A stretch of 45,951 bases of DNA, taken from Deltaproteobacteria bacterium (GTDB taxonomy: Bacteria > Desulfobacterota > WTBG01 > CAIYCZ01 > CAIRTM01). The translations under genes and the position numbers were made by a program. This document shows, piece after piece, positions 1 through 16,730 of this stretch (positions within the stretch are counted from its first letter, which is position 1; every line of letters begins with the position of its first letter). The notes beneath the pieces are model-generated. The model saw nothing but the letters and a program-made list of their open reading frames with translations. It was not told the DNA's origin and searched no databases. The stretch lies in the NCBI GenBank assembly GCA_016932595.1, contig JAFGCP010000305.1:1-45951 (forward strand). Reading direction: 5' to 3'.

Positions 1-111
1 CGGCACCATAAGCGCCCTGACCCTGTAGCCACGTTTCAAAAGCTCCTGCACCACCAGCCTGCCCGCCCTGCCCGTAGCGCCTGCAACCACTACTGTTTTT
101 TCTTCTGCCAT
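1..111 (-). CDS. NAD(P)-binding Rossmann protein (NmrA/atypical-SDR-like); only the N-terminal 37 codons, gene runs off the left edge
   Basis: Minus-strand ATG at 111..109, with GGGAG 5 nt upstream. Translation is MAEEKTVVVAGATGRAGRLVVQELLKRGYRVRALMVP, which contains a GxxGxxG dinucleotide-binding loop. Confidence 0.6.
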   Translation of the reverse strand, partial: MAEEKTVVVAGATGRAGRLVVQELLKRGYRVRALMVP

Positions 112-250
112 ACGTGTCTCCCTGAGGATTGTTTTTACGTATTCTTCGTAATCCCATAAAGATTTTTTTTCTATTTAAACTCAGCAGGGCTGGCTGTGCC
201 AACCATTGTATACAGCGGGAGTAGCACCTCACATTTTAAAGGCAAAATTA

Positions 251-1978
251 CTACATTCCCAATTCTTTCCTGAACTCCTCAACTGTCGCTCCGATTACGG
301 TATCACGCGATTTGCCCCGGGCATAATCCTCAGTGCCCGATACGGCGGCCTGACGAAAGGGTGAGGGCACCAGCTCAAGCATGCCTTTTGCCTCGTTATC
401 CCACGCCATGGTGAAGGTAAGGCTTGAAATCGGCACTTCTTCATCATCCTCTGCTGCCGGGGCCGATGCTGAGTCGTCGCCAAACACAGCGGCAAATTTT
501 GCCTTGAACTTGGTGGGCGTAAACTTGTCGGACACTTCCCTGAAAATAGAAAGCGTCACGTTCGTGCCGCGCTCTTTCGCTATCTGCTCGGCCACGGAAT
601 GCAGCTTTTTAAGCGCTGTGGCGCGCACGAAATGCGGTATCATCTCGCCCACCTTTATCATGGCCTGTTCTGCCGCGATATCCCAGGGCACCGAGCCCGT
701 GGAGATGGAGCCCATCATATCACCCTTGGTCTCAAGGAATATGCCCATGTAGACTTCGTTCACCAAGCCCTCGACAAGGTACTTGGCGCCCATAAACCCC
801 ATGAACGGGCAGTTCTCCGAGCTCAAATACCCGATAGTGGGAATATCCGAAAAAATAAAATTTTTGAATCCCTCATCCATGCTCACTTTCTTATCATAGA
901 AGTTGCCATAGATGACCATGGGGCCTTTTTCAACGAACTTGTCGCGCTTCTGCTCAATGGTGGGGCATATGAGAACATCATCGCACAAGGCCTCGATGCG
1001 CTTTGCTGCATCGTGGTTGCTCACCGCCGTCATGACAATGCCAACGCCCACCTCTTTATTCAAAAACTCGCTGATGCCCACGGCATAGGTGTTGGCATTT
1101 TCAAGCGACAAAGCCGCCGTCATCTCGAAGGTTACGGTAAAGACCATATTTGATGAAATGAACTCAAAAGCATTGGCCATGGTCTCTTTAAGATACGGGC
1201 CGGCATCAACCTTGAAAAAGTCTGCAATCTGCTCCACCCATGCCGCAGAATTCCCGAACCCGATGGGGATAATATCCGCCATATACGGAATGCCGAAGCG
1301 CTTCTCCATTTCCTGCGCAACCCGCACGCCGCTGTCATAGGGATAGATACAAAGATTGAGCTCTGCCTGAGCAGCATTTTTTATCTGGCCAATGGTTGCA
1401 CCTGCCGTGTAGACGCAGTTGACCGTAACGCCAATACCTGCGAGCATGCGCGTCAGCTCATACACATCGGCGCGCCAGTTAAAGGTTGAAAATGTCGGGC
1501 CGATGATATTGACCGACCTCGAAACTTTTTTGGCTGTCGGGTCGACAAGATCGAGAATGCGGATAAAAGCTGTCTCCTTGCCCTCCACCAGAGAGCCTCC
1601 GATGGGCGGGTGAATAATAACCGTATCTTTAAAACCAGCCTTCTTGACCACGCCTTCCACATCGTCGCGCGTCACCTCCACCGTGGGAGCGGTGACAATG
1701 AGGATCGCGCCGGGCTTTTTTGCCGCGATCTTCTGAAGTGTCGTCTCCATGCGGTCTTCTGCGCCCTGCATGATATTGGCGTACGAGAGGTTGGTCGAAT
1801 ACAGCTCGCAGGTCCAGTCATTGACCAGGGCATTCACGTGCTGGTTTATGTAACAGCCAGGAGGAGAATGAAAGATGGTGTCAGCGCCCTTGATGCCCAG
1901 GCATGCCCAAAGCGCACCCTCAAAAGCCGAGGGCGTGTGAAGCTCCTGCATCTTAAAATCTTTTTGTGTCTCATTCAT
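251..1978 (-). CDS. Nitrogenase component-1-type oxidoreductase, NifN/NifK/BchB-like subunit, with two C-terminal BchB-type (PCP_red-like) domains
   Basis: ORF 251..1990. The likely start is Met5 at 1978, with GGAGG 5 nt upstream and 1 nt after the upstream gene's TGA. The HSPPGCY motif resembles NifK HGSQGC. The tail carries two copies of the W..eA...L...P.F(V)R...E..A pattern seen at the BchB/ChlB C-terminus (aa ~434-490 and ~526-579), separated by an acidic linker. Confidence 0.85.
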   Translation of the reverse strand: MNETQKDFKMQELHTPSAFEGALWACLGIKGADTIFHSPPGCYINQHVNALVNDWTCELYSTNLSYANIMQGAEDRMETTLQKIAAKKPGAILIVTAPTVEVTRDDVEGVVKKAGFKDTVIIHPPIGGSLVEGKETAFIRILDLVDPTAKKVSRSVNIIGPTFSTFNWRADVYELTRMLAGIGVTVNCVYTAGATIGQIKNAAQAELNLCIYPYDSGVRVAQEMEKRFGIPYMADIIPIGFGNSAAWVEQIADFFKVDAGPYLKETMANAFEFISSNMVFTVTFEMTAALSLENANTYAVGISEFLNKEVGVGIVMTAVSNHDAAKRIEALCDDVLICPTIEQKRDKFVEKGPMVIYGNFYDKKVSMDEGFKNFIFSDIPTIGYLSSENCPFMGFMGAKYLVEGLVNEVYMGIFLETKGDMMGSISTGSVPWDIAAEQAMIKVGEMIPHFVRATALKKLHSVAEQIAKERGTNVTLSIFREVSDKFTPTKFKAKFAAVFGDDSASAPAAEDDEEVPISSLTFTMAWDNEAKGMLELVPSPFRQAAVSGTEDYARGKSRDTVIGATVEEFRKELGM

Positions 1979-1979
1979 G

Positions 1980-3215
1980 TCAGCCTCCATATTTCCGCAT
2001 CAGCCCCTGCCAGGTTTCATAGACGGGCTTGTGCATGTTTTTAAAAAAATGAGCGCCAAGATCAATTGCATAATCGTAGCCGTACTCACAGAGGTACAGC
2101 ATGTTGATGAAGGTGGGAACGAGGCGTGCTACACACTCGGGCTGCGCCTGAAACTCGACCGACACTGCCGTTGGCTTAATCCGGTCGACCACCTCGCCGA
2201 TCATGTCGAAATCCTCTTCTATAAAGGTAACGCCATAGCGCTCCTGCATAAGTTTTTTCTCCTGCTGGTAGAATTTATTCTTCATGGAAGGAACCACAAA
2301 AACCTCAGCCCCGAACTCGGCAAAAATCTTGCCGACAGACACTTCGTTTGCCGGACCCGACACCATAAGCATGCGCACTTTCTCTTTAGCAAACCGTTCA
2401 CGAATCTTTTCAAGCTCCGGCTTCACGCGCTTTTCCTCTTCATTAACCAGATCATGGAGCTTCTGATTCTTCAGCCGGTCAGCAACAGCGCGCAGAAAAT
2501 TTGAGGTGCCCTGAATGCCTGCAGGAATCTCGATAAACTCAACGTCGCCGCCGAAGTTTTCGCTGAGGTGCTTGCAGGTAAGCCAGGGGGTTATGTGAAT
2601 CGGGTAATACTTCTCAGCGCAAACGATTTTACTCATGCTGTCAATATGGGGCGTAGGAAAAACAAAGTACGGAATTTCGGCCTTCTTGAAATACATCTCA
2701 AGTGACGCAAGGTTGCCGGCGTCCTGGCCGGTGCGACCTACGATGCCGATGGAGCCGGGCGCCTTCTCCTGCTTTTCGAAGGTGTCAATGACGGCTACCC
2801 ATGCGGCATCAGAGCCAAGGGGCATGGAGCGCGGATAGTTGAAGCCCGTGAGGCAGGTGCTCACCTTCAGGTCCGGTATTTCCTGCTTGAGCTCGATGAT
2901 CACCCCTTCGATATCCTCACCGATGAGCTGGGGAATGCAGGTATTGATGATGACGATGACTTTAGGGTGATATTTCTCATAGAGGTTCTTGACCTGCAGC
3001 TTCAGTCCAGCCTCGCCGCCGAAAATAACGTCGCTTTTGTTGACAAGGGTACCGGCGGTTACAAGCTGCGCCGGGCGGCATGACATGGAGCCAACCTGGT
3101 TCTGATACGAGCATGGTTGCGGCCCGTGCAGAAGCGGTATGACGCCTTCAATTTTGCCAAGGCTTGCCAGAGCCTGAATCGTGGAGCAGCAGTGCTCATA
3201 ATGTTTGAGGGGCAT
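1980..3215 (-). CDS. Nitrogenase component-1-type oxidoreductase, NifE/NifD/BchN-like subunit
   Basis: ORF 1980..3245. The likely start is Met11 at 3215, with AAGGAGG 8 nt upstream. Three Cys motifs (HCCST, HGPQPC, NTCIPQLIGEDIEG) are spaced about 26 and 58 residues apart, like NifD C62/C88/C154, NifE C37/C62/C124 and the BchN triad. Confidence 0.85.
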   Translation of the reverse strand: MPLKHYEHCCSTIQALASLGKIEGVIPLLHGPQPCSYQNQVGSMSCRPAQLVTAGTLVNKSDVIFGGEAGLKLQVKNLYEKYHPKVIVIINTCIPQLIGEDIEGVIIELKQEIPDLKVSTCLTGFNYPRSMPLGSDAAWVAVIDTFEKQEKAPGSIGIVGRTGQDAGNLASLEMYFKKAEIPYFVFPTPHIDSMSKIVCAEKYYPIHITPWLTCKHLSENFGGDVEFIEIPAGIQGTSNFLRAVADRLKNQKLHDLVNEEEKRVKPELEKIRERFAKEKVRMLMVSGPANEVSVGKIFAEFGAEVFVVPSMKNKFYQQEKKLMQERYGVTFIEEDFDMIGEVVDRIKPTAVSVEFQAQPECVARLVPTFINMLYLCEYGYDYAIDLGAHFFKNMHKPVYETWQGLMRKYGG

Positions 3216-3317
3216 GGGAAAAACCTCCTTTTGAATGACCTGCATCTGTGGGGTTCGCTGTGCGCACCGTTGTATCCTGCGACTGCAGCCAATCCTGAAA
3301 ATTGCAATTTGAAATCT

Positions 3318-4169
3318 TTAATGTTTTCTCCCTGCTGCCTGGGCCCACCAGGCATGGAGCTCTTCAAAGGTGAACGACGCGGGCACGGAAAGCTCCTTGT
3401 TATTCAAAATCGATTCGGCAAGACGGCGGAAGGCCTCGCACTCTGCCGTATCAGGCGCATGCTGGAAAAGAGTGAGTCCCTTGCCCGAGCACTCTTTTAT
3501 TTTTTCGCTGTAGGGGATAAACCCGACAAGATGGCTCCCGAGTTTGCGGGAAAATTCATCCAGGATGGTCTGCTCGTCCTTCAGCTCCCGGCCATTGCCG
3601 ATGATGCCGCCGAGCCTGACGCCCGAACGGGAATTGAAGCGCGACACGGCCTTGCAGATATTGGAGGCGGCAAACAACACCTCGAGCTCGCCGCTGCTCA
3701 CGATATAGACCTCGTCGGCATGGCCTTCGCGGATGGGCATGGAGAAACCGCCGCACACCACGTCGCCCAGCACGTCGTAGAGAACCACATCGAGTTTCAG
3801 AACCTCCATCACGTTGAGATGCTTGAGCGCCTCTATGGCCTCCACCACCCCCTTGCCCCCGCAGCCAAGCCCGGGGTCAGGCCCGCCGCTTTCCGCGCAG
3901 AAAATCTTTCCGGAGCAGGTATCGTTAAGCGGGCTTTCAAACACCACCTCGTCCATGGCAAGTGATTTCACCTCAAAGTTCTTCTTCCGCAAAATCCCCA
4001 GCACTGTCTGGGGCATTTTGCCTTTCAGCAGCAGACGCGTGCTGTCATGCTTGGGATCGCAACCCACATGCAGCACCCGCAGACCTTTGGCCGCAAGGGC
4101 AAATGTTATATGGGATGACACCATGGACTTTCCGATACCGCCCTTACCGTAAATAGCTATCTGGCGCAT
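3318..4169 (-). CDS. NifH/BchL-family Fe-protein-like ATPase, paralog 1
   Basis: Walker A is YGKGGIGKS and switch I is GCDPKHDST. The 4Fe-4S Cys motifs are GLGCGGKG and DVLGDVVCGGFSMPIREG. AGAGG lies 6 nt upstream of the ATG. Confidence 0.95.
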   Translation of the reverse strand: MRQIAIYGKGGIGKSMVSSHITFALAAKGLRVLHVGCDPKHDSTRLLLKGKMPQTVLGILRKKNFEVKSLAMDEVVFESPLNDTCSGKIFCAESGGPDPGLGCGGKGVVEAIEALKHLNVMEVLKLDVVLYDVLGDVVCGGFSMPIREGHADEVYIVSSGELEVLFAASNICKAVSRFNSRSGVRLGGIIGNGRELKDEQTILDEFSRKLGSHLVGFIPYSEKIKECSGKGLTLFQHAPDTAECEAFRRLAESILNNKELSVPASFTFEELHAWWAQAAGRKH

Positions 4170-4341
4170 GAGAGACCTCTTTTATTTATTGTGACGAATT
4201 CCTTACGTACCCTTGAGTTATGTTGGGTTAAGCCCGACAGAAACCGTTGGGTTTCGTACCTCAACCAAACCATCAAATTATTTATATAAGGGGCATGTTT
4301 CAAACCTGCCCCTGCAATCACAAGGGCGAACCCAACAAAGC

Positions 4342-5181
4342 TTAGTTTATATACGGCAGCCACCAGTCATAGAGCTCTTCAAACTCAAGAGTATTCGGGA
4401 TAACAAGATTTTTATTGTGAAACACCTTCTGCCCGATCTCGCGGTAGAGATTCGCCTCCGGCGAATTCGGCGCGCATTGAAACACGGTCTCGCCGTCACC
4501 GCCGCACTGCTTAACGGTCTGACTGTAGGGAATGACGCCCACGATCCGGGTGCCGATCTTTGCGGCAAAGTCCGTCACCATCTGCAGCTCATTTTTCACG
4601 CGCCGCAAATTAACGATGAGCCCGCCGAGCTTTGAGCCGGCGCGAGTTTCAAAGCGCTTGATGGCCTTTGACACATTGCTCACCTGATAGAGCGCCTCGA
4701 ACTCGCCGCTGGTCACCACATAGGTTTCCTGCGCAAAGCCCTGACGTATGGGCAGGGAAAAACCGCCGCAGACGACATCGCCCAGGATGTCGTATATAAC
4801 GATATCGATATCAAGTGCCTTGAATATACTGAGTTTTTTTATCGTGTCGATGGCTTCAACTACGCCCTTGCCGCCGCATCCCACGCCGGGCTCAGGGCCG
4901 CCGCTCTCGGCGCAGTAGATTTTGCCGCCATTTTCAAACTGCAGGGGCGATGTGGCAATAATATCTTCAGGGGAAAGGTCGTCGTACATGAAATCATTTT
5001 TACGCAGCACGTCAAGAATCGTCGGCGGGAAGTCAGGTAGCAGAAGATAGGTGCTGTCGTTTTTCGGGCTGCACCCCATCTGCAGCACTTTCATGCCCTT
5101 CTCTGCAAAGGAGTAGGAAAGATGTGATGCTACCGTAGATTTACCAATACCTCCTTTGCCATAAAGTGCAATCTGCCGCAT
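4342..5181 (-). CDS. NifH/BchL-family Fe-protein-like ATPase, paralog 2 (switch I Asp replaced by Ser)
   Basis: Walker A is YGKGGIGKS. The Cys motifs are GVGCGGKG and DILGDVVCGGFSLPIRQG. Switch I reads GCSPKNDST, with the Ser codon at 5068..5070. The AAGGAGG Shine-Dalgarno site overlaps the marR stop codon. Confidence 0.95.
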   Translation of the reverse strand: MRQIALYGKGGIGKSTVASHLSYSFAEKGMKVLQMGCSPKNDSTYLLLPDFPPTILDVLRKNDFMYDDLSPEDIIATSPLQFENGGKIYCAESGGPEPGVGCGGKGVVEAIDTIKKLSIFKALDIDIVIYDILGDVVCGGFSLPIRQGFAQETYVVTSGEFEALYQVSNVSKAIKRFETRAGSKLGGLIVNLRRVKNELQMVTDFAAKIGTRIVGVIPYSQTVKQCGGDGETVFQCAPNSPEANLYREIGQKVFHNKNLVIPNTLEFEELYDWWLPYIN

Positions 5182-5192
5182 AGGTTTCCTCC

Positions 5193-5672
5193 TTACTCCT
5201 TGTTATGGACGGCGACATTTTTCATAATTGCATTGACGACACGCAGCGACTTCAACAGCCGCACACGTTGCTTTTCATCAAGGCATCCAAAAATATTCAT
5301 CAGCTCCTGCTCGCGTGTATTTAAAATACCGCCGTGTGCCTTTTTCCCGCTATCTGTCAGCCGTACTTTAACGACCCGGCGGTCTGCAGTATCGCGAACG
5401 CGCTCCACAAAGCCTTCCTCAACAAGTTTGTCGACGACCTCGGTCATGCTGGGCATTTTCACATTGGCGATTTTGCACAGCTCTCCCATGCTGTAGTGCC
5501 GGTCTTCGTGAAACGCCGTCATAGCCTTAAGCTGAGAGTTGTTGACCGGAAAACCCATCAGCCCTTTGCTGCTCATCACCATATGCTGAAAAAGGTCCGA
5601 AAAAAGATTTCTGACCTCGATTAAATGCATTTCTATTTCGGTAAGTTCACTGAGCTGCTTGCTGTGTTTCAT
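5193..5672 (-). CDS. MarR-family transcriptional regulator, first gene of the nitrogenase-like operon
   Basis: Winged-helix MarR signature: YSMGELCKIANVKMPSMTEVVDKLVEEGFVERVRDTADRRVVKVRLTDSGKK. It lies 11 nt upstream of the next gene. Confidence 0.9.
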   Translation of the reverse strand: MKHSKQLSELTEIEMHLIEVRNLFSDLFQHMVMSSKGLMGFPVNNSQLKAMTAFHEDRHYSMGELCKIANVKMPSMTEVVDKLVEEGFVERVRDTADRRVVKVRLTDSGKKAHGGILNTREQELMNIFGCLDEKQRVRLLKSLRVVNAIMKNVAVHNKE

Positions 5673-5755
5673 GGCACATATCCTTTTGCAATGATGATCC
5701 GGCTGCCAACTACGATGCTATAAATTTCAGCAAAAAATATTTCAGATAAAAAAAA

Positions 5756-5797
5756 TTCACTAGTGAAGTATATAGACTCTGAATTTCTCTTTGTCAA
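5756..5797 (-). promoter_or_regulatory. Sigma70-type promoter plus palindromic candidate operator for the marR/nitrogenase-like operon
   Basis: On the minus strand, TTGACA (5797..5792) is followed by a 17-nt spacer and TATATA (5774..5769). The perfect 12-bp palindrome TTCACTAGTGAA (5756..5767) abuts the -10 box. Confidence 0.5.
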
Positions 5798-5884
5798 GTC
5801 AGGAATTTTTGTATTTTTAAACTTTAAAAGCTGCAGGATGATCCAAATGACGTAACGTGCTGATTAAACATGCTGCATCCGGAA

Positions 5885-5932
5885 ATAAAAAAACAGGCTT
5901 TACCCGCAACACTGTTGCGGTCTGGCCTGTTG
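5885..5932 (-). terminator. Rho-independent terminator downstream of the second marR
   Basis: The minus-strand RNA reads AACAGGC-CAGA-CCGCAAC-AGU-GUUGCGG-GUAAA-GCCUGUU followed by U7. This is a nested GC-rich hairpin with a U tract. Confidence 0.7.
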
Positions 5933-6031
5933 TGTCTGTGCGCGGAAACGGTGTGCGTAACAATCGTGTATTCGACGCGAAACGGCTAGCAGGGGGGGGG
6001 CAAGAAGCATGCAGCTTCCCATATATGCCGG

Positions 6032-6502
6032 CTAAGGCTGTGTTGTCTTCTTTAAAATACCTGAAACCTTTCGCAAAGCCGTGAGCAGTTCATCCTGATC
6101 CTTCTGTGAAAGTTTGCCAAAGAGATTACCCATCTCCTCGCGGCGACGGCCTATGAATTTATCGTGAATCTTTTTGCCTGCATCAGTCAGCGCCACTTTG
6201 ACCACGCGGCGATCCTTTGTGTCGCGCACCCGTTTGAGCAAGCCCTCGGACTCGAGCCGATCGACCATCTCTGTCATGCTTGGCATCTTCACCAGGGCGT
6301 TCCTGCTTAACTCCGTCATACTGTACTCGCGGTCTTCGTGAAACGCGGTTAGCGCCTTCATCTGCGACAGAGTCACGGACATATCGCTGATACGGCGGCT
6401 GCCCTTGACCATTTTGTTGAAAATCTGCACGAAAAGGTTGCGCACCTCTATCATATGTTCTTCAATCTCAGTGACTTTTTCCATAAAAACCTTACTATCC
6501 AT
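6032..6502 (-). CDS. MarR-family transcriptional regulator, paralog of 5193..5672
   Basis: ORF 6032..6514. The likely start is Met5 at 6502, preceded by GAGG, and this gives the same N-terminal length as the paralog. The signature is YSMTELSRNALVKMPSMTEMVDRLESEGLLKRVRDTKDRRVVKVALTDAGKK. Confidence 0.9.
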   Translation of the reverse strand: MDSKVFMEKVTEIEEHMIEVRNLFVQIFNKMVKGSRRISDMSVTLSQMKALTAFHEDREYSMTELSRNALVKMPSMTEMVDRLESEGLLKRVRDTKDRRVVKVALTDAGKKIHDKFIGRRREEMGNLFGKLSQKDQDELLTALRKVSGILKKTTQP

Positions 6503-6516
6503 GCAGCACCTCATTT

Positions 6517-6570
6517 TAGGATTTTTAATATTTAATATCCTAATATATTAATTACATATCTTTATGTCAA
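6517..6570 (-). promoter_or_regulatory. Sigma70-type promoter plus inverted-repeat candidate operator for the second marR
   Basis: On the minus strand, TTGACA (6570..6565) is followed by a 17-nt spacer and TATATT (6547..6542). The inverted repeat TAGGAT-N14-ATCCTA (6517..6542) starts at the -10 box. Confidence 0.5.
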
Positions 6571-6967
6571 GTTTTATTTTATATTTTCAATCAATTTTCA
6601 ATAAATATTTTTGAAACCATTTTGAACATACGCTATATAGCTAAACGAACGGTGCTAGAACCTGTGTAATAGCAGAACCTGCCGAGTTTTTTTAGTTTTA
6701 ATAACATGGCTGGCGGAAGATGACATTTGTTTTTGATAGTGTTCTCTTGCAGGAGAGGCTTCAGCCACGAAACAATCGCACCTGAAGCTGCTGCTGCAAT
6801 GAAAACAATGCCCTCCAATTTAAAATGTCATGGCCCCGGGACCATTCATTGCTGCGATTCTTGTGCAATCGGCTCGTCCTGCGATTCTGGAAATACTAAA
6901 GTTTATTTGAAATTTTATTAAGCAAGGGGTTCCCGGGATACAGAGTGATTGGCGGCAGCTATTATTT

Positions 6968-8689
6968 TTGATGAAACAGGCGCACAACCTGTTTCTACTC
7001 TTCAATCAAAACAACACTCCTTCGAAACATATGAAAATAATCTACGCATCCGATATTCATGAGTCTTATAAAAACCTGCAAAAACTCTTTCGTATGACAG
7101 AGGCCGACCTCTATATAATCGCAGGAGACCTCCTTTACAGCGCCTTCCCTTCATGGGAACTTGCCGAACGCTTCACTGAGATGCAGCAACGCGTCTATTC
7201 CTGGGGCTTAAGCCGCGGCATAAAGGGAACACGCTTTACTATGGCCCGGCATATGCTTGAAACGCCGGAGACTCCTTTAATTGAACAGGCCCTCGCAAAA
7301 GAATTTCTTCGCATCACCGATCTTGCACAAGCAAGCATGCTTCAAAAATACGGCCGCATGGCAAAAATTTTTACCGCATCCGGCAAGACCGATATAATAA
7401 CCATCCCCGGCAACTACGATATGGATCTTAAAGAAACCGCCCTCGCATCATGGAACCTGCATCTGCAAACACGGATCATAAACGGGATTACCTTCGCCGG
7501 CTACGGTGGATCACCGGTATTCACGCCCGGCATACCCGACAACCTTCGGATTACCTACAATGAACTCAGGCAGAACGGGCGGCTCATATCTGAACCCTAT
7601 GAATTTTTCACAAAAACCAGCCCTGATGTTATCCTGCTGCACCAGCCTGCCTACGGTTACCTGGATACAATTGCCACCTACGGCAGCATCGGCAGTATTG
7701 GCGTTCGAGATTTTATCGACCACAGCAGCGTGCGCCTCGTGCTCAGCGGCCATATGCATGAAGACTGGGGTGCGATTTTCAAGCAGGGTAAAGTTTTCTT
7801 GAACCCTTCAAATTTCGGCCGCGTCGTAGAAATTCACCGTATTAAAAAAGGCGGCTACTTTACCGAATTTACCATGGACGGCACTACCTTCACAGGGGGC
7901 ATGCTGCGCCAGATCGACGGCGGAAAGGCATACGATATTGAGCAGTGCATTATGCGTGACGACAAATTCCGGCTGCTGGTGATAGACCTCAAGCGATACC
8001 GCTATCTCTCAAACATAAAAAAACGCCAGAAGCATATACGCGCCATACGCCTGTTTAATGCGCTGCGTGGGTTCTTTCAGAAACATGAAACCGAGGCAAC
8101 CCGCACACGCATAGAAGCACTAAAGGAATTCTGCCGCAAACTTCATAAGGAAGGCCATGAGATAGCATTCCACCTGCTTGGTTCTCTTAATTTCGGCATG
8201 GCGACCGACACATCGGATCTTGACACCGTGCTCTACTTCCGCGACCCGGCGATTACCGTTCCCGATGATGTCTCCTACCCTGTGCCCGACTACGTACGCT
8301 CACGCCTGGGAGAGCTGAAAGACAGCGGCATTGATCTTTCCATCTGCGACTGCTTAAATCTTGCGCGCATCGAGGAAGCGATCATCGCGCAGGATGTGGA
8401 CAACACGCTTCTGCAGCGCTTTATTTTTTATTATGGCACCTGCCGCTGCGTAAACGCGGAGCCCATCAAGGAGGTGGAAAACCTGCTCACCAACATGCAG
8501 CCGTTCCGCTTTGAGGTTGAAGGAGAGCTGGCCGAGGTCTTCCGCATGATGATCAGCAGCTTTCGCCACTCCTTCTCATTCAAAAAATACCAGATGCGCC
8601 TGCATGAAAAAGGCCTGACCGTGCCGCCATACATTGAAGAAAAAATCTGGGAGTATCTTGAATACCGGGATGAAAAGCAACAAAAATAA
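6968..8689 (+). CDS. Fusion protein: calcineurin-like metallophosphoesterase (N-terminal) plus Pol-beta-superfamily nucleotidyltransferase (C-terminal)
   Basis: The phosphoesterase motifs are SDIH, AGDLL, PGNYD, LLHQP and SGHMH. The nucleotidyltransferase motif is LLGSLNFGMATDTSDLDTVLY (G[SG]...DxD). The biological start may be the ATG at 7031 (MKIIYASDIH). Neither candidate start has an obvious Shine-Dalgarno site. Confidence 0.8.
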   Translation: MMKQAHNLFLLFNQNNTPSKHMKIIYASDIHESYKNLQKLFRMTEADLYIIAGDLLYSAFPSWELAERFTEMQQRVYSWGLSRGIKGTRFTMARHMLETPETPLIEQALAKEFLRITDLAQASMLQKYGRMAKIFTASGKTDIITIPGNYDMDLKETALASWNLHLQTRIINGITFAGYGGSPVFTPGIPDNLRITYNELRQNGRLISEPYEFFTKTSPDVILLHQPAYGYLDTIATYGSIGSIGVRDFIDHSSVRLVLSGHMHEDWGAIFKQGKVFLNPSNFGRVVEIHRIKKGGYFTEFTMDGTTFTGGMLRQIDGGKAYDIEQCIMRDDKFRLLVIDLKRYRYLSNIKKRQKHIRAIRLFNALRGFFQKHETEATRTRIEALKEFCRKLHKEGHEIAFHLLGSLNFGMATDTSDLDTVLYFRDPAITVPDDVSYPVPDYVRSRLGELKDSGIDLSICDCLNLARIEEAIIAQDVDNTLLQRFIFYYGTCRCVNAEPIKEVENLLTNMQPFRFEVEGELAEVFRMMISSFRHSFSFKKYQMRLHEKGLTVPPYIEEKIWEYLEYRDEKQQK

Positions 8690-8737: not shown

Positions 8738-9292
8738 CTATTGTGCATCTCTTTTCCATATAACATTGCGCAAGCCTTCGCGGTAGCACAGTCGGCGGAT
8801 TTTATGGGGAATTATTGTGACAATATTGAAATTATAGGAGTCTGCAGCCTCACTAAGGCCCTGCTCTTCAAGTTGTTTCAAATACCGTGAATACGCGCGA
8901 ATTTCACGAAAACGATTACTATCTTCATTTTTTCTAAAAACATTGGCGATGCCCCAAACCTGCATTCCTGAGGCCCCGAAAAAATCAACTCCGGGGTTGT
9001 AGGGATCGGCGATACTATAGGATACTTTTTCGTTTGCGTGCATGTTGGCTATTTTGCCCCCACCCTCGCAGAACATATGCACGGTGAGGCCGTTATTAAA
9101 ATACTCAACTGGCGTGCACCGGGGCTCATTGTCCTTGCAGGTTGCCAAATGCAGCACGTTGTGGCTGCTGAGATAGTTGATGGCCATTTCAATGAACTCT
9201 TCTTCCGTCATGGCCGCACGCATATTGATTCCGGCCATTTCAAAGGCCTTCAGCTCTTTGGCGTTTGGTTGCGGGACGATTACTTTTCCCAT
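8738..9292 (-). CDS. Pyridoxamine 5'-phosphate oxidase-like (split-barrel flavin-binding) family protein
   Basis: 184 aa. The segment LHLATCKDNEPRCTPVEYFNNGLTVHMFCEGGGKIANM resembles the PNPOx-like fold family. AGGAGG lies 8 nt upstream of the ATG. Confidence 0.5.
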   Translation of the reverse strand: MGKVIVPQPNAKELKAFEMAGINMRAAMTEEEFIEMAINYLSSHNVLHLATCKDNEPRCTPVEYFNNGLTVHMFCEGGGKIANMHANEKVSYSIADPYNPGVDFFGASGMQVWGIANVFRKNEDSNRFREIRAYSRYLKQLEEQGLSEAADSYNFNIVTIIPHKIRRLCYREGLRNVIWKRDAQ

Positions 9293-9424
9293 GACAGCAT
9301 CCTCCTGTAAAAAATTTGATTATTGATGATTGTGCGCCTCGATTGTTTGTTCATAATTTTAATAAAACCGGCTATATGGCTAGAGCATTTTTCTTTATTG
9401 TGTAGCCAAATTCTCCATACATGC

Positions 9425-9496
9425 CATTCCCGTTCGTGGTGAGCTTGTCGAACCATGAACGGGAATGCGGCCCTTCGACAGGCTCAGGGCGAACGC
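9425..9496. repeat. Palindromic intergenic repeat element of the VSLSNHE / PFDRLRAN type
   Basis: A perfect 11-bp inverted repeat pairs CATTCCCGTTC (9425..9435) with GAACGGGAATG (9457..9467). Imperfect ~21-nt inverted arms pair GTTCGTGGTGAGCTTGTCGAA with TTCGACAGGCTCAGGGCGAAC. Translation gives the spurious peptide strings typical of this widespread repeat. Confidence 0.6.
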
Positions 9497-9828
9497 ATAG
9501 GAGTTTCGTTTTTGAAAGATATTTTTTTTGCAGGCTACAGTATTTAGAAAAATGCCCTAAACAGAAAAAACGCCGGAAATTCTTCATCCTTTAGACCTGT
9601 GAACGAACAGCCGGTATGTACAATAAATGCCACTGCATGAACAGTATAGCCATAAACAGGCCAAACCCTTTGAAAAGATACAGCCGGAAATTTTGGCGCG
9701 TATGCGCATTGATTACAAATCATATCTAAAAAAACATGCTCAGAACGCGGGGCAGGGAAAGCAGCCGTTGCAAAAACGCTGCCCATGATATTTTTGGCTG
9801 TTCCATAGATGCGAAAAGTCTCAATAGC

Positions 9829-9869: not shown

Positions 9870-10364
9870 CTAAACGGAGTCAGAACCCTTCTGTAGCAGA
9901 GCAATGATATGGGGGGCGCTGCGTTCAACAATCGGCCCCAATTCTTTAACTACTGCCAGATATTCTTCCGGAGAAACCATTGCAACATCGGGTATATCAT
10001 AGCGCTGCATAATCATCTCGCTTAACATGTAAACACGCGCTGCGTACTGTGGAAATTCGACTTGCAGAGCTTCTTTATGAAAGCTTGTCATGCACAAAAC
10101 AAGATCGGATTCAGCCAATAAATCGCTTGTTATTGAGCGGGAGCGATGATGCCTCAGATCAATGCCCGCAGCAAGCAAATGGGGCAAAACCGACGAAACA
10201 ACACATTCGCCATCCTGCGCCCAGGTTCCGCAGGACTCAACATGCCAGGAACCGGTTATCCGATGCTGCTGCAGCCATTTTTTAAATAAAAATACCGCAA
10301 TCGGGGAACGACATAAATTGGCCGTACACACAAACATTACTGTTGGCATATAACCGGTCCACAA
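9870..10364 (-). CDS. Low-molecular-weight protein-tyrosine phosphatase (Wzb-like)
   Basis: The CX5R(S/T) P-loop is VMFVCTANLCRSP near the N-terminus. The protein is ~160 aa and lies directly downstream of the BY-kinase gene. Confidence 0.85.
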   Translation of the reverse strand: MWTGYMPTVMFVCTANLCRSPIAVFLFKKWLQQHRITGSWHVESCGTWAQDGECVVSSVLPHLLAAGIDLRHHRSRSITSDLLAESDLVLCMTSFHKEALQVEFPQYAARVYMLSEMIMQRYDIPDVAMVSPEEYLAVVKELGPIVERSAPHIIALLQKGSDSV

Positions 10365-10419
10365 AAAAAATTTTCCGAAACCATCTTCAGATTCGTCATG
10401 TCAGCGGCACAGGTATAGG

Positions 10420-12114
10420 CTATACACTGGGTAACGTTTTTTTTTCCTTTTCTTTTACAAACATTCGGTTAAACTGCTTTTTGACTAAGCACTGCATATA
10501 CGCAACCGGATTCTTGAGTAATCCGGGCTGAAAGTTATTCTCCTCATTATATTTGGAATTGTAATAATAGCTGCTGTAATGGTAATGATAATAGGTGCTT
10601 CTATCACGAGGCGCCTTGTTGAAAACAACCCCTATAATATAGGCACCTGCGCGCTCCAGCTGCTCTTTGGCGTGCAGCAGATCTGCAAACCGCGTCTTGC
10701 CCACCTCAACGACCAGAACCACCCCATCAACCCTATGGGCCAGCATGGATGCATCCGTCATTGCCGCAATAGGCGGGGAGTCTAACAGGATAATATCGCT
10801 CGTTTCTGCAATGAAGTCCAGCAACTGCCCCATTTTATTCGACCCCAGCAACTCAGCCGGATTGGGAGGAAGGTTGCCGGCGTTCAGTAAACTCAGGTTG
10901 GGAGCATCCGTTGGCCGCAATACATTTTCAAAATTAATTGTCTCCTGCAGCAGAAGCGCTGAGAGGCCATGCCTGTTTGATTTATCGAAATGCTTGTGCA
11001 GAGACGGGCGATGCATATCGCAATCAAGCAGGGCAACCGTTTTGCCGGCCTGGGCGAAAACAGTGGCAAGGTTTGCAGCCACAAAGGATTTTCCCTCCTG
11101 GGCATTGATGCTCGTTACGAGAATCCTGCGCATAGGCCTTTCAATGCCGGCATACAGTATATTGGACCGAAGAAATCGAAACGCCTCGGTTATGGGCGCA
11201 CGAGGCTTTTTATGCGCGATCGGTTTGTCCTCTGCCTCCTTGCTTGACAGGAGAACAGCTACCCCAATCAGAGGAAGTTGCAGACCCGTGGTGATCTGTT
11301 CAGCATTTTTAATGGAATCGTCCAGGTAATCAATGATAAAAATCAAAGCAACACCAAGCAGCAAACCGAAAATAACGCCCAAAACCACACTTCGGGCAAT
11401 GCGGGGGCGAACCGGAAACAGGGGCACACTTGCCCTGTCTACAACAATCACATTGTTCAAAATTTGGGCTTCAACCAGGCGTTGACTTTCATAACTTTGC
11501 ACCAGGCTGGATCGGCTTTGCCGCAAACGGACCAAATCAGATTCAAGGGAGGACCGCTTGTTTAATGCCGAGGGATCGTTATTGCCAAACAATGTGGCAA
11601 TCTGAGACTCCATCTGCTCGATCTGTTTATCAAGGGCGGCAATTTCCTTGGCAAGGCTTTTTTTGGATTCAACAAAACGGCTCGACTGAGTAGAGTTATT
11701 GTATGCGATAAACACTTCCGGGATAAGGTTACAAAGGGCTGCCGCACGCACCGGATCCGTATCATCGACGCTCAACCTGATTAATTGCGTATCCTTCACC
11801 AATTGCACCTGAAGCATCCAGACGAGTGCTTGGGCGTTAAACGGACACTTCAAACGGGCAACAACCTCAGAGAGTATCGCTTCTGACTGCAGCAATTGAA
11901 CATAGGTGCGCGCCAGCCGCTCACTGACTTGGAGCGAAGCTAAATCAACGCCCTTCGCACCCGAGGCTTCACTGATCAAAACTGTACTGACGGCCTGAAA
12001 CACAGGCTCCTGCATGGAGCTTCTCAGATATGCAAACCCGCCGCTGAAAGCTATACAAAAAAATAACAGCCACCACCATCGCAATAAAAGAGAGAAATAC
12101 CCTCGAAGCTCCAC
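10420..12114 (-). CDS. Polysaccharide co-polymerase / tyrosine autokinase (Wzc/GumC/EpsG-like BY-kinase)
   Basis: There is an N-terminal TM segment, a Wzz-like coiled region and a second TM segment. The ATPase motifs are Walker A (NAQEGKS), A' (LLDCDMHRP) and B (IILLDSPP). The Tyr cluster is STYYHYHYSSYYYNSKY. Confidence 0.9.
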   Translation of the reverse strand: MELRGYFSLLLRWWWLLFFCIAFSGGFAYLRSSMQEPVFQAVSTVLISEASGAKGVDLASLQVSERLARTYVQLLQSEAILSEVVARLKCPFNAQALVWMLQVQLVKDTQLIRLSVDDTDPVRAAALCNLIPEVFIAYNNSTQSSRFVESKKSLAKEIAALDKQIEQMESQIATLFGNNDPSALNKRSSLESDLVRLRQSRSSLVQSYESQRLVEAQILNNVIVVDRASVPLFPVRPRIARSVVLGVIFGLLLGVALIFIIDYLDDSIKNAEQITTGLQLPLIGVAVLLSSKEAEDKPIAHKKPRAPITEAFRFLRSNILYAGIERPMRRILVTSINAQEGKSFVAANLATVFAQAGKTVALLDCDMHRPSLHKHFDKSNRHGLSALLLQETINFENVLRPTDAPNLSLLNAGNLPPNPAELLGSNKMGQLLDFIAETSDIILLDSPPIAAMTDASMLAHRVDGVVLVVEVGKTRFADLLHAKEQLERAGAYIIGVVFNKAPRDRSTYYHYHYSSYYYNSKYNEENNFQPGLLKNPVAYMQCLVKKQFNRMFVKEKEKKTLPSV

Positions 12115-13304: not shown

Positions 13305-15062
13305 CTAGTTTTCCCTGCGCTCCATAAACCAGTTCCCCATCACCAGTACATCCATCCTGGTGCGCAAAAAACAGTCGAGGGCTTCCTCCGGTTTACAGAC
13401 CACCGGCTCATTTTCATTAAATGATGTATTGAGGACCGTCGGCACCCCGGTGATGGCCTCAAAGGACTTGATCAAATGATAATAACGGGGGTTCTGTAAT
13501 TCGGTTACACTCTGCAAGCGGCCCGAACCGTTGACATGGGTAACCGCCGGAATCAGCTGCCGCTTATCCTCACGAATCTGATACACTTGCAGCATAAAGG
13601 GAACATCATAATCGGTTTCAAACCATTCCTCAACTGCTTCACGGATTATCGAAGGAGCAAAAGGCCGAAACGATTCACGACGCTTGATCTTCAGGTTCAG
13701 GATATCCTTCATGTCGGCGCGACGAGGATCGCAGACGATAGAACGGTTGCCCAGCGCTCGCGGCCCCCACTCCAAGCGCCCCTGAAACCAGCCGATCACC
13801 TTGCCTTCAGCAACCCGTAGCGCCGTCCGGCGGCACAGCTCTGCTTCGTCCAAAATCTCCTCAACTGAGCAATTCACCGCCTGTATCTTTTGAGCATTCA
13901 CAGTCAACAGTTCGCCGATCTCCGCATTGCTGAACTCCGGTCCGAGATAGGCATGATCCATTACAAAAGAACGCGGATTGCCCAGTTCCTGGTTCCAGAC
14001 ATAAAACGCAGCGCCGATTGCACCGCCGCCGTCTCCGGCCGCCGACTGGATATAAATCTCCCGGAAGGGGCTCCTGTCAAAAACCTTGCCATTGGCAACT
14101 GAATTCATGGCGCAGCCGCCGGATAGGCAAAGATTCGGGGACTTCGTTTCCATATGGACATGCTGCAGCAAATGAAAAAAAGCCTCTTCGTACATCGCCT
14201 GAAGAGAAGCGGCCAGATCCTTGTGATACTGGCTCAGCGGCTCATCTCTGCCCCGTGGCGGCCCCAGCAGCTCAGCCAGCTTCGCCGAATAGACGGTGCC
14301 GATCTTCGGCTCGCCATCCTCCCATACCATGGAGACCCCTTCGGAATGATGAATAAAATAATCCAGATCCAGCTCAAAAAGCCCTTTTGGCTTCAGCAGA
14401 ACGATCCGCCGCATTTTCTCCAGCTGAGACACTGAACCATAGGGCGCCAAGCCCATGACTTTATATTCGTCGCCGTAATGGGGAAAACCCAGAAACTGGG
14501 TCATGGCCAGATAGAACAGGCCCAGCGAGTGCGGGAATGACACCTCATCGTGAACGGTGATGGATGCCCCGCTCCCCATGCCCCACATGGTGCTGAGAAA
14601 ATCACCGAAACCGTCTACTGAAACAACGGCGGCCGAATCAAAAGACGAGACAAAAAAAGAGCTGGCCAAGTGCGCCAGATGGTGCTCCACATCATGGATG
14701 CGGGCACGGCAGCTGTCCGCTTTTACCCCCAGCCCTTGACACAGCAGTGCCCGAATATCTTTAACCTTTCCGGCATTCCTGAGCCGGTCTTTGATCGCTT
14801 CAAGGCTGGGGCGCTTGGTGAACGCAAAAAGCGCCTTCTGCAGGAGGTGGGCGCTTGGTTTGCGGTTAATGGCGATATGGTCAACCTGGTCGATAGATAT
14901 CCCGCCTGCCGACAGGCAATAGCGCACTGCCTGGGTCGGAAGCCCAGCCCAGTGCTTGATGCGCCTGAAACGTTCCTCTTCGGCAGCTGCCACCAGCTGG
15001 CCGTTGATAAGGAGACAGGCTGACGAGTCTCCGTGATATGCATTAAGTCCAAGTATAATCAT
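13305..15062 (-). CDS. Carbamoyltransferase (NodU/CmcH family)
   Basis: The N-terminus ILGLNAYHGDSSACLLINGQLVAAAEEERFRRIKH and the 585-aa length are typical of the family. Stop and start codons are tightly packed with the neighbouring genes. Confidence 0.85.
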   Translation of the reverse strand: MIILGLNAYHGDSSACLLINGQLVAAAEEERFRRIKHWAGLPTQAVRYCLSAGGISIDQVDHIAINRKPSAHLLQKALFAFTKRPSLEAIKDRLRNAGKVKDIRALLCQGLGVKADSCRARIHDVEHHLAHLASSFFVSSFDSAAVVSVDGFGDFLSTMWGMGSGASITVHDEVSFPHSLGLFYLAMTQFLGFPHYGDEYKVMGLAPYGSVSQLEKMRRIVLLKPKGLFELDLDYFIHHSEGVSMVWEDGEPKIGTVYSAKLAELLGPPRGRDEPLSQYHKDLAASLQAMYEEAFFHLLQHVHMETKSPNLCLSGGCAMNSVANGKVFDRSPFREIYIQSAAGDGGGAIGAAFYVWNQELGNPRSFVMDHAYLGPEFSNAEIGELLTVNAQKIQAVNCSVEEILDEAELCRRTALRVAEGKVIGWFQGRLEWGPRALGNRSIVCDPRRADMKDILNLKIKRRESFRPFAPSIIREAVEEWFETDYDVPFMLQVYQIREDKRQLIPAVTHVNGSGRLQSVTELQNPRYYHLIKSFEAITGVPTVLNTSFNENEPVVCKPEEALDCFLRTRMDVLVMGNWFMERREN

Positions 15063-15071
15063 GAATATCTC

Positions 15072-15332
15072 CTAAAATTGAAAATAGATAAATTGATTAA
15101 CCGGTTTCAAAAATATAAAATAAAGATAAATCATCGTGCTCAACGCGGCTACCTCCGATACGCGGAAAACGACTGGGTGGCTGAATATTGCAAGACGCGC
15201 TTGTTTGATGGCATACGCTGCCAGCATGGCGGCCATAATAAGAAAAACGATAAGATAAAAATTCTCATAAAACAAAAGATGCATATGTGAACCAGAATGA
15301 ATACGGTTGCCGGGCAAAGTAGAGATCTGCAC
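15072..15332 (-). CDS. Small hydrophobic protein (about two TM segments), unknown function
   Basis: A GTG start is preceded by GAGGAGGAGG at a 10-nt spacing. The stop codon overlaps the Shine-Dalgarno site of the carbamoyltransferase gene. I recognise no family. Confidence 0.35.
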   Translation of the reverse strand: MQISTLPGNRIHSGSHMHLLFYENFYLIVFLIMAAMLAAYAIKQARLAIFSHPVVFRVSEVAALSTMIYLYFIFLKPVNQFIYFQF

Positions 15333-15509
15333 TAAAGCAGCACCTCCTCCTCAGGATGGCGGTTTTTGACATCAGCGAACCAATCCTTTTTATCTCCTGC
15401 ACTCTTGTCCAACCCGACAGCTGAAGCAAACAGCCGTTTACGTTTCTACAAGCTATGCCGGCTGATGCAGATCGGTTACCGGCAAAAGGCAACGCCCCTT
15501 TTCCCCCGA

Positions 15510-16730
15510 TTACTCCTTTAAATACGGCTGAATTATCTGCTTTCCTGTAATTGCGCCCCAAAACAAAGCAAGATTATCTTGTAACACCTGATCATCCGCT
15601 GCAGTAAGCTCTGCATACTCTCTTGCACGACGCCTATACTCAGCCCGCGCCTCATTATCCAAAGCCGCCTGTGCTTCTATAACAGCGCAAAAACGCTCCT
15701 GCGCTTCCAAGGGCAGATCCCACCCCACACCAAGAGACTCCAGGTTTCGCCATGGCGTCTTATCGCTGATCAAAACGGGTAAGCCCGCGGCAAGTGCTTC
15801 AAATATGACATGCCCATAATTTTCTCCCCTTGTCGGTAAAAAAAACAGCTCGTTCATGGAGAGAGTTTGAAGAACTTTATCGTGCGAAATTCTTCCATGA
15901 TAATGAACGACCACATGCGCAGGCAAATCTTTTATAAGCCTTTGACAGTGCTGCCAGTAAAGGATATCTTCAGCCACGCCATAAATATTAAAAATGACAG
16001 GAGCCTTGACTTGAGCAAGCACCCGCAAGGCATAATCAAGGTTCTTCATTTCACATATACGGGACAGAAAACAAACACGTAAAGCACCGCCCTGAGGTGA
16101 TTGCCCTCCATTTGGGATGCCCGATATTGAGACTCTGTCGCCCGGCATGTCAGGAGCAAGGACGATTGCAAGAACGATTCTCTTGGCTATTTCTCCCATG
16201 GCCCGGCGGATATCTGCGGCCTCATACTGGCTGGAAGCCTGCCAGGTAATGTCTTTATAAAGATTAACCGTATTTACAACGCCCAGATAGGGTTTCTTTT
16301 TCCAAGCCTTTAGCGCCAGCGCCCCTCGGGCAAGTGCTCCGCGAGGTGCAAGAATCGTCGGTCGCCTGGGGATAATCCCCAGCAACCGTGCCAGAAGCGG
16401 CATTTGAGTAAAAAACGGATCAAAGAAGCTGTTCAAATACAGCACATCATACGGAATCCCCCTGAGAAGACGCACCCAAAACAGCAGCGACCGCTTATCT
16501 GGCGAGCAGTACAACACTTTAGCCCTGCCGACCTGATTCCAGTCATCAACGACCACATCCGGATATGACCCCTTATCTTTAAAGTCTCTATCGGCTGTGA
16601 CGATGCGGAAATCGAAATCATCGCTGAGAACCGACACCATGTTCGCAACCGTTTGAACCGGGCCGCCTGCTTTAAACCCGGGCAGGTACCAGGGTATGGA
16701 AGTCAGTATTATTGGTTTAGGCATTGTCAC
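15510..16730 (-). CDS. Family-4 (GT-B fold) glycosyltransferase
   Basis: The C-terminal signature is FFLPTRGENYGHVIFEALAAGLPVLISD (the EX7E region). Confidence 0.8.
   Translation of the reverse strand: MTMPKPIILTSIPWYLPGFKAGGPVQTVANMVSVLSDDFDFRIVTADRDFKDKGSYPDVVVDDWNQVGRAKVLYCSPDKRSLLFWVRLLRGIPYDVLYLNSFFDPFFTQMPLLARLLGIIPRRPTILAPRGALARGALALKAWKKKPYLGVVNTVNLYKDITWQASSQYEAADIRRAMGEIAKRIVLAIVLAPDMPGDRVSISGIPNGGQSPQGGALRVCFLSRICEMKNLDYALRVLAQVKAPVIFNIYGVAEDILYWQHCQRLIKDLPAHVVVHYHGRISHDKVLQTLSMNELFFLPTRGENYGHVIFEALAAGLPVLISDKTPWRNLESLGVGWDLPLEAQERFCAVIEAQAALDNEARAEYRRRAREYAELTAADDQVLQDNLALFWGAITGKQIIQPYLKE

Follow-up and report, generated by a model that had tools for sequence, protein, structure and literature searches.

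A 45,951-nucleotide (nt) stretch of DNA from a Deltaproteobacteria bacterium (contig JAFGCP010000305.1 of assembly GCA_016932595.1; hereafter the window) carries a five-gene operon on its minus strand in the order MarR-H2-H1-D-K. The second and third genes, H2 (4342..5181) and H1 (3318..4169), encode two NifH-like iron (Fe) protein paralogs, and they are followed by D (1980..3245), a NifD/NifE/BchN-like catalytic subunit, and K (251..1990), a NifK/BchB-like catalytic subunit. On balance, we favor the reading that H1 and H2 together make up a heterodimer which would serve as the Fe protein of the adjacent D/K reductase, with one competent and one degenerate ATP site. The argument is built on the residues of the ATP site in the two copies, on their conservation across genomes, and on a second lineage in which two NifH-like units are joined in a single chain.

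The two NifH-like paralogs and their ATP sites

Both proteins match the Pfam family PF00142 (Fer4_NifH) over their full length, H2 (279 amino acids, aa) with an E-value of 3.6e-85 and H1 (283 aa) with 6.8e-92, or 286 and 308 bits against a cut-off of 25. The two NifH-like reading frames of the original prediction, an earlier note made from the sequence of this DNA alone, are thereby confirmed, both of them on the minus strand. The note had described them as back to back; they are instead a tandem on the same strand, with H2 upstream of H1 and a spacer of 172 nt (4170..4341, minus strand) between the genes. Its estimate of roughly half identity was a good one, as BLASTP gives 142/275 (52%).

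Assignment to a particular kind of Fe protein is not supported by the NCBIfam models. The nifH equivalog (TIGR01287) gives 299.5 bits for H2 and 300.1 for H1 and demands 394.35, and the cut-offs are likewise missed for CfbC (NF033200; 296 bits, cut-off 402), BchL (TIGR01281; 207-220 bits, cut-off 345) and BchX (TIGR02016; 175-187 bits, cut-off 331). The scores lie nearer to the NifH and CfbC models than to the BchL model. The best PDB match of the H proteins is 9fmg_D ('Nitrogenase iron protein') at 242 bits, and NifH follows at ~221 bits; we take 9fmg_D to be MarH, the Fe protein of methylthio-alkane reductase. As judged by these models, H1 and H2 are nitrogenase-like proteins and not nitrogenase. 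This matters for annotation: in sediment, freshwater and wastewater metagenomes the names 'nitrogenase iron protein NifH' and 'AAA family ATPase' are in wide use for such genes, which should not be counted there as markers of nitrogen fixation.

Residues were compared with those of A. vinelandii NifH (Av numbering), a reference sequence whose numbering was verified at K10, K15, D39, K41, D43, C97, R100, D125, D129 and C132. The P-loop GKGGIGKS, the switch II motif D.LGDVVCGGF and both cluster cysteines are kept in H1 and H2, and with them K10, K15, S16, D43, C97, D125, D129 and C132. In H2 the deviant Walker A motif (5137..5160) is intact, with its signature Lys9, P-loop Lys14 and Ser15. The predicted [4Fe-4S] ligands, which the note had seen in both paralogs, align as Cys102 (4876..4878) and Cys138 (4768..4770, inside the switch II sequence DILGDVVCGGF) of H2 and as Cys103 (3861..3863) and Cys139 (3753..3755) of H1, equivalent in each case to NifH Cys97 and Cys132. 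Both ligands and the switch II motif DxxGDVVCGGF are found in all orthologue clusters except one outlier sequence. It is in switch I that the two proteins part. H1 has the pattern Asp39-Pro-Lys41-x-Asp43 (GCDPKHDSTR, with Asp38 encoded by GAT at 4056..4058), whereas H2 lacks it and reads GCSPKNDST at aa 36-44. Ser38 of H2, encoded by AGC at 5068..5070, aligns with Asp39 of A. vinelandii NifH; motifs, codon and alignment are all as the original prediction had them. Elsewhere, the divergence between H1 and H2 is strongest at Av 47-75 (the loop joining switch I to the docking face), at 159-173 and at the C-terminus, and Arg46 is invariant in H1 and variable in H2. H1 also stands apart in the residue that follows the P-loop Ser: it is Met (GKSM; Met16, 4122-4124) in 104 of 107 clusters, where NifH, H2 and almost every relative carry Thr (GKST). 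The 'canonical' subunit thus has a fixed oddity of its own.

The H2-H1 pair is not a local accident. A genome search with K as the query, limited to one genome per species, returned 19 loci, and the order H2-H1-D-K was found in all 17 that had enough upstream flank as well as in L022 (Spirochaetota), L024 and L031. The note had proposed the tandem arrangement as one thing to check, and it is present in every related locus with enough flank. The hosts belong to the Thermodesulfobacteriota, the Spirochaetota and the Gammaproteobacteria (Chromatiales), and each H2-H1 operon holds a single D/K set. In a neighbour-joining tree, H1 and H2 form sister clades, each made up of a delta/spirochaete and a gamma subclade, and the duplication is therefore older than that split. 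Both proteins are under strong purifying selection, with ratios of nonsynonymous to synonymous substitution rates (dN/dS, omega) of 0.04-0.15 against their orthologues. Spacing between H2 and H1 varies: 12-16 nt separate them in eight other loci, in L024 they overlap, and within the subclade to which the window belongs they lie 172-401 nt apart (172 nt here, ~400 nt for both L003 and L005). No convincing terminator and no Rfam element was found in the 172-nt spacer. A decayed version of the locus occurs in a marine gammaproteobacterial metagenome-assembled genome (MAG; L020/L021, 4293-6257), where H2 is intact, H1 continues into a short Oxidored_nitro remnant (368 aa) and an amidase gene replaces D and K.

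Variation of the ATP site across these orthologues is confined to H2. The switch I sequence GCDPKHDSTR of H1 is present in 107/107 full-length clusters, which share 60-97% identity. H2, on the other hand, falls into several subclades. The largest (84 clusters) has GCSPK(N/H)DST, with Asp39 changed to Ser; a second (16 clusters) has GCDPQ(A/S)DST, with Lys41 changed to Gln; a third (11 clusters) combines GKGSIGKS and GCDPM.DST, with Gly12 changed to Ser and Lys41 to Met; and in a fourth (8 clusters) the ATP site is apparently unaltered (GCDPK.DST). The D-to-S change, which the note had also proposed to check, is conserved in part: Ser39 is fixed in 84/84 H2 clusters of the Thermodesulfobacteriota/Spirochaetota clade, including all orthologues of the window H2 at 67-96% identity, and is confined to that clade, with Asp kept or other H2 residues altered elsewhere. 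The Ser codon is AGC in nine and AGT in one of the 10 Ser-type loci compared. Asp in both copies, which the note had named as a finding that would count against its idea, was seen in a minority of operons, namely L012/L025 (H2 GCDPKSDST), L020 and L031 (H2 GCDPKNDST). Since L031 is a complete MarR-H2-H1-D-K operon with Asp in H2, the pair is the older feature, and changes to the ATP site of H2 followed, differing by lineage. That these changes are confined to H2 strengthens the wider idea that the H2 site is the dispensable one.

Single-chain double-NifH proteins in a parallel lineage

The top ranks of an exhaustive HMMER scan with H2 went to proteins containing two NifH-like stretches, and a follow-up search yielded ~100 clusters of single-chain double-NifH proteins of 570-640 aa (P0121-P0124, P0128 and P0271-P0365; loci L027, L029 and L030). 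Their hosts are Chloroflexota, Dehalococcoidia, Binatia, Myxococcales, KSB1 and Thermodesulfobacteriota, and among the names given to them at NCBI are 'ArsA-related P-loop ATPase' and 'AAA family ATPase'. The fusions adjoin Oxidored_nitro (NifD/K-like) pairs, at some loci together with a NifB-like gene, and the fusion is the sole Fe protein next to D/K at these loci. The lineage exists in unfused form as well: downstream of the gene for the Ser-type P0142 (GCSPKADSV), after a gap of 52 nt, comes one of the Asp type. For P0121, AlphaFold2 with an alignment of 97 sequences predicts two NifH-like halves close to Fe proteins of known structure (TM-scores 0.9-0.95) and, joining them, a disordered linker at 280-307 (pLDDT 90.6, pTM 0.87).

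For 96 chains that could be split, residues were counted half by half. At position 39 the N-terminal half has Ser in 95/96 and the C-terminal half Asp in 96/96. Lys10 is present in all 96 N-halves and in only 38 C-halves (Thr in 47, Asn in 11), and Asp43 shows the opposite distribution, with 38 N-halves and all 96 C-halves. Lys41 is nearly invariant (95/96 and 96/96), and Cys97 and Cys132 are kept in both halves of all 96. As general background, the signature lysine of such ATPases extends into the nucleotide site of the partner. The Ser-type site, which lacks its own Asp, is therefore often also without the trans-acting Lys10, while the other composite site is complete; such a distribution would be sensible only for halves that face each other as a pair. 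This residue pattern is what would be expected for one consensus and one degenerate composite site.

The order of the units is the same as in the window, with a Ser-type unit first and an Asp-type unit second, cluster cysteines in both and an Oxidored_nitro pair adjoining. In other respects the fused family (P0121 and relatives, ~585 aa) differs: it goes back to a separate duplication, forms one polypeptide, shows further degeneracy (Lys10 to Thr or Asn in the C-half, loss of Asp43 in the N-half) and has a NifB-like gene at some of its loci. We considered a common origin of the window pair and the fusion halves and rejected it. BLAST scores are undifferentiated (H2 with the N-half 167 bits and with the C-half 174; H1 with the N-half 158 and with the C-half 169), and the neighbour-joining tree keeps H1 and H2 as sisters. 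Together, BLAST and tree suggest that the Asp39-to-Ser change arose independently in the window and fusion lineages.

A second position behaves in a similar manner. Tyr159 (Av) is Tyr165 in H2 (4687-4689) and Phe166 in H1 (3672-3674). It is kept in the Ser-type unit of both lineages (95/96 fusion N-halves) and replaced in the Asp-type unit of both, by Phe in H1 and by Thr, Val or Leu in the fusion C-halves. This is a second convergent asymmetry, and the residue may be another one that acts across the dimer. The scan also returned other architectures, among P0125, P0127, P0134, P0363, P0366 and P0369, including two canonical Asp-type NifH domains in one chain and H-H proteins fused to an Oxidored_nitro domain (948-1081 aa), and many H-D fusions of ~700-730 aa (e.g., P0266).

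A candidate asymmetric Fe protein and its alternatives

When the switch I Asp is mutated, in NifH (D39N) or at the equivalent position of Soj, MinD and Get3, hydrolysis suffers and ATP binding does not. Two entries among the structure matches are of interest in this respect: PDB 1XD8 is the Asp39Asn variant of NifH, and 4WZA is a NifH complex with different nucleotides in its two sites. A literature search on Asp39 returned nothing relevant, and the role assigned to it here comes from background knowledge and PDB entry titles.

In the heterodimer that we favor, H1 and H2 would each donate two cysteines to one bridging [4Fe-4S] cluster, and both subunits would bind MgATP because both P-loops are intact. 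The ATP-bound H1·H2 would then dock on the pseudo-twofold axis of D/K and hand its electron to a DPOR/COR-type inter-subunit [4Fe-4S] cluster held by three Cys from D and one from K. Hydrolysis would take place mainly or only at the composite site formed by the H1 pocket, with its Asp38, and the trans-acting signature lysine of H2. The other site, made up of the H2 pocket with Ser38 and the lysine of H1, would bind nucleotide and hydrolyse it slowly or never. The consequence could be that fewer than two ATP are hydrolysed per electron, or that the enzyme has a built-in timer for the release of the complex.

Facing homologous nucleotide-binding units with one consensus site and another that is non-equivalent or degenerate are known from ArsA and from degenerate-site ABC transporters, and the partners in ABC transporters divide the degeneracy between them. 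The fused NifH family shares this split with the ABC transporters, a resemblance in working and not in family; unlike H1/H2, neither ArsA nor the transporters have a bridging [4Fe-4S] cluster or transfer electrons. The homodimeric Fe proteins NifH, MarH, CfbC, BchL and BchX have in common with H1/H2 the PF00142 domain, the deviant Walker A motif, switches I and II, two Cys per subunit and an adjoining NifD/K-like pair. In contrast to them, the window system has two genes diverged to 52% identity, one of which is without the switch I Asp, and both fail the equivalog cut-offs.

An engineered linked BchL dimer provides a precedent of another kind (Corless et al., 2020; PMC7948495). It demonstrates that a single-chain or non-identical Fe-protein dimer can work and that its two ATP sites can be addressed separately. 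The construct is active with linkers of at least 20 aa and needs ATP binding at both sites, which fits the retention of the binding residues in H2 (PMC7948495). Unlike H1/H2, it is artificial, and a knockout of ATP binding at one site kills its activity (PMC7948495), whereas H2 keeps its binding residues and has only the catalytic Asp changed. Natural counterparts appear to be lacking in the literature. As the note had stated, characterised Fe proteins are homodimers: a 2026 Chem Rev review (PMC13474568) describes each of them (Nif, Vnf, DPOR, CfbCD, MAR and ISR) in this way and is silent on Asp39. Neither that review nor the full-text literature searched yielded a natural Fe protein that is heterodimeric or fused. 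The parts of the system are thus familiar, and the asymmetry of the subunits, its repeated evolution and the natural fusions appear to be undescribed.

What, then, could two Fe-protein genes do if not this? They could make separate homodimers, H1-H1 as the working reductase and H2-H2 as a protein that binds ATP, hydrolyses it poorly and acts in the maturation of the D/K cluster or cofactor or as a regulatory lock. As general background, the maturation roles of NifH (P-cluster, FeMo-co) do not need turnover, and H2 retains its cluster cysteines and P-loop. The precedent of all characterised Fe proteins points to homodimers (PMC13474568). Moreover, the spacer of 172-401 nt in the window subclade would permit separate expression levels. 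What makes this explanation unlikely in our view is the strict co-occurrence of the two genes in a fixed order in ~20 loci and, by analogy, the parallel lineage, where Ser-type and Asp-type units are fused 1:1 into the sole Fe protein beside D/K and where the Lys10 lost from the Asp-type half would be sensible only if the halves pair together. A protein with Ser at both sites would, in addition, be expected from background knowledge to stay bound to its partner in the manner of D39N NifH.

A heterodimer in which both sites hydrolyse ATP is a different matter, since it leaves the pairing intact: each subunit would be tuned to face D or K, and Ser38 would be tolerated or serve in fine-tuning. 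It would account well for the operons in which the H2 site is fully canonical (L012/L025 and L031), so that the pair predates the change, for the peaks of H1/H2 divergence at Av 47-75, 159-173 and the C-terminus, and for the retention of Lys10 in H1. It accounts poorly for three different catalytic-site substitutions in H2 against zero in H1, and for the recurrence of Asp-to-Ser in the fused lineage, accompanied there by loss of the trans-acting Lys10 and of Asp43; the equivalent Asp is also known to be needed for hydrolysis in related ATPases. We hold this version to be quite improbable. The thought that H2 is a redundant duplicate drifting toward loss of function, for which one could cite its varying catalytic-site residues and the one decayed locus (L020/L021), was rejected and has next to no credit with us, as the dN/dS of H2 (0.04-0.15) is as low as that of H1, Ser is fixed throughout its clade (84/84), and H2 is kept across three phyla with P-loop, switch II and cysteines intact.

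The asymmetric H1·H2 heterodimer with one degenerate site has difficulties of its own. Tight translational coupling is not evident in the window subclade, where the spacer is long, and the trees are neighbour-joining trees with few reference sequences. The operons with Asp in both copies mean that Ser, or catalytic asymmetry altogether, cannot be the original cause of the duplication. Ser can still hydrogen-bond water, and the H2 site may have kept part of its capacity for hydrolysis. Lys10 is retained in H1 of the window lineage, unlike in many of the fusions, and fusions of another lineage lend their support to the window model by analogy only. The broader idea of the note, an asymmetric Fe protein, gains from the invariance of H1 beside a varying H2, the single D/K set, the purifying selection and the fusions; the formation of the heterodimer, its hydrolysis defect and its docking are what we infer from sequence.

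Going one step further, one may tentatively propose a natural class of Fe proteins, heterodimers or single-chain pseudo-dimers with one degenerate site, that would have evolved at least twice through Asp39-to-Ser and would spend about 1 ATP per electron, with the second nucleotide as a structural or timing ligand; this wider proposal we regard as possible rather than probable. Why two ATP are used per electron and whether both Fe-protein sites act equally are old open questions, approached so far through mutants and engineered linked dimers. If true, an Fe protein with natural asymmetry would offer a test system that already exists, with one invariant subunit, another with several independent catalytic replacements, and single-chain versions besides; the need for hydrolysis of two ATP per electron could be put to the test in it.

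The D/K partner and the surrounding genes

D matches PF00148 (E 2e-47) and misses every NCBIfam equivalog cut-off. K matches PF00148 (E 3e-57, 194.6 bits) and carries at its C-terminus (aa 530-572) a PCP_red domain (PF08369) that scores 38.8 bits against a cut-off of 32.5; it misses the equivalogs for BchB (158.9 bits, cut-off 490) and BchZ (117.5 bits, cut-off 529). Four cysteines of D are invariant (Cys20, Cys45, Cys56 and Cys103), three of them at BchN-like ligand positions and Cys56 in addition. Cys46 of K stands at the position of BchB Asp36 and is conserved as Cys in 15/21 sequences; BchZ, too, presumably has a Cys there. The likeness to DPOR and COR (BchNB, BchYZ) thus lies in K, which is nearest to BchB (its best PDB matches are BchB chains) and has the PCP_red domain, and in the three BchN-type cysteines of D. 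It ends with the scores, which are far below the BchB, BchN and BchZ cut-offs, with the best PDB match of D, which is NifEN, and with the hosts, which are mostly non-phototrophic Thermodesulfobacteriota.

A search of the window found no nifB, nifE or nifN gene. Genes of the NifB-like or radical-SAM kind were likewise missing from the window and from the flanks of L022-L025 and L031. From the cysteine pattern of D/K and the lack of NifB, a single inter-subunit [4Fe-4S] cluster of the DPOR/COR type is likely. Group VI enzymes, a clade sister to group V, are described as lacking NifB, as filling no more than four of the six P-cluster Cys positions and as having a neighbourhood rich in radical-SAM genes (Meheust, 2020; North and Shafaat, 2026); the window operon and the related loci examined have no such radical-SAM-rich neighbourhood. 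The missing NifB, the three conserved ligand-like Cys of D and the one Cys of K would suit group VI and are not peculiar to it. None of the related loci comes from an assembly listed for that group in the supplement of the 2020 paper.

Neighbouring genes offer a weak lead to a tetrapyrrole or bilin as the substrate, in organisms that are not phototrophs. A gene of the NmrA-like/NAD_binding_10 type adjoins the operon in both delta and gamma lineages (the window, L001, L012/L025, L014, L023 and L031). In the window it is the start of an NmrA-like/NAD(P)-binding gene (MAEEKTVVVAGATGRAGR...) 3' of K on the minus strand (1..110), cut by the window end and recognized through a tblastn match to the NmrA-like gene after K in L006/L023; elsewhere it lies at ~9890-10485 (L001), 14993-15679 (L023), 8828-9679 (L025), 3037-3888 (L014) and 3508-4425 (L031). 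Biliverdin reductases of the BLVRB type and the anaerobilin reductase ChuY belong to the NmrA-like fold family. A ferredoxin-dependent bilin reductase (PF05996) is found downstream of the operon in two distinct loci only, both of the Thermodesulfobacteriota type, at 14980-15702 right after K in L024 and at 15743-16465 after the NmrA-like gene in L023. The papers examined on pre-PcyA bilin reductases mention no nitrogenase-like neighbour, and no published link between a nitrogenase-like enzyme and bilin reductases was found in the full-text literature searched.

Upstream, the operon opens with a MarR-family regulator (5193..5672, minus strand; PF01047, E 8e-11), whose stop lies 11 nt ahead of the H2 start. 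One MarR gene stands directly before H2 in all delta/spirochaete-type loci and is absent from gamma-type loci. In the window a second, paralogous MarR-family gene (6032..6514, minus strand; PF01047, E 2e-11) precedes it in tandem, and this gene is also present in the closest relatives, L001 and L002. A promoter and terminator scan of window positions 1-7000 gave counts not above those of shuffled controls, and an Rfam scan of the whole window gave zero matches.

The closest genome loci are from MAGs labelled 'delta proteobacterium' or Thermodesulfobacteriota, with K 91-93% identical. DNA nearly identical to the window is present in a sediment metagenome; a metatranscriptome from the same study (X21) gave only cross-matches to the operon, at the conserved motif of switch II. 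X14, a run from a mud metagenome with the label RNA-Seq, contains contigs that match parts of K, D, H1 and H2 at 90-95% identity (window 912-4773), which may reflect transcription of a related operon, RNA and DNA being indistinguishable in that run.

Beyond the MarR genes, a 573-aa protein (6968-8689, plus strand) has an N-terminal calcineurin-like phosphoesterase domain and a long C-terminal part that has no assignment. Its gene adjoins one for a PNPOx-like protein (PF01243; 8738-9292, minus strand). Past these two genes, as seen from the operon, a long polysaccharide/O-antigen gene cluster occupies the minus strand at ~9870-45002. The cluster encodes a low-molecular-weight phosphotyrosine phosphatase, a Wzz/tyrosine-kinase protein, glycosyltransferases and a carbamoyltransferase, together with an HldE-like kinase/cytidylyltransferase, sugar epimerases and dehydratases, a DegT aminotransferase and a Wzy_C ligase.

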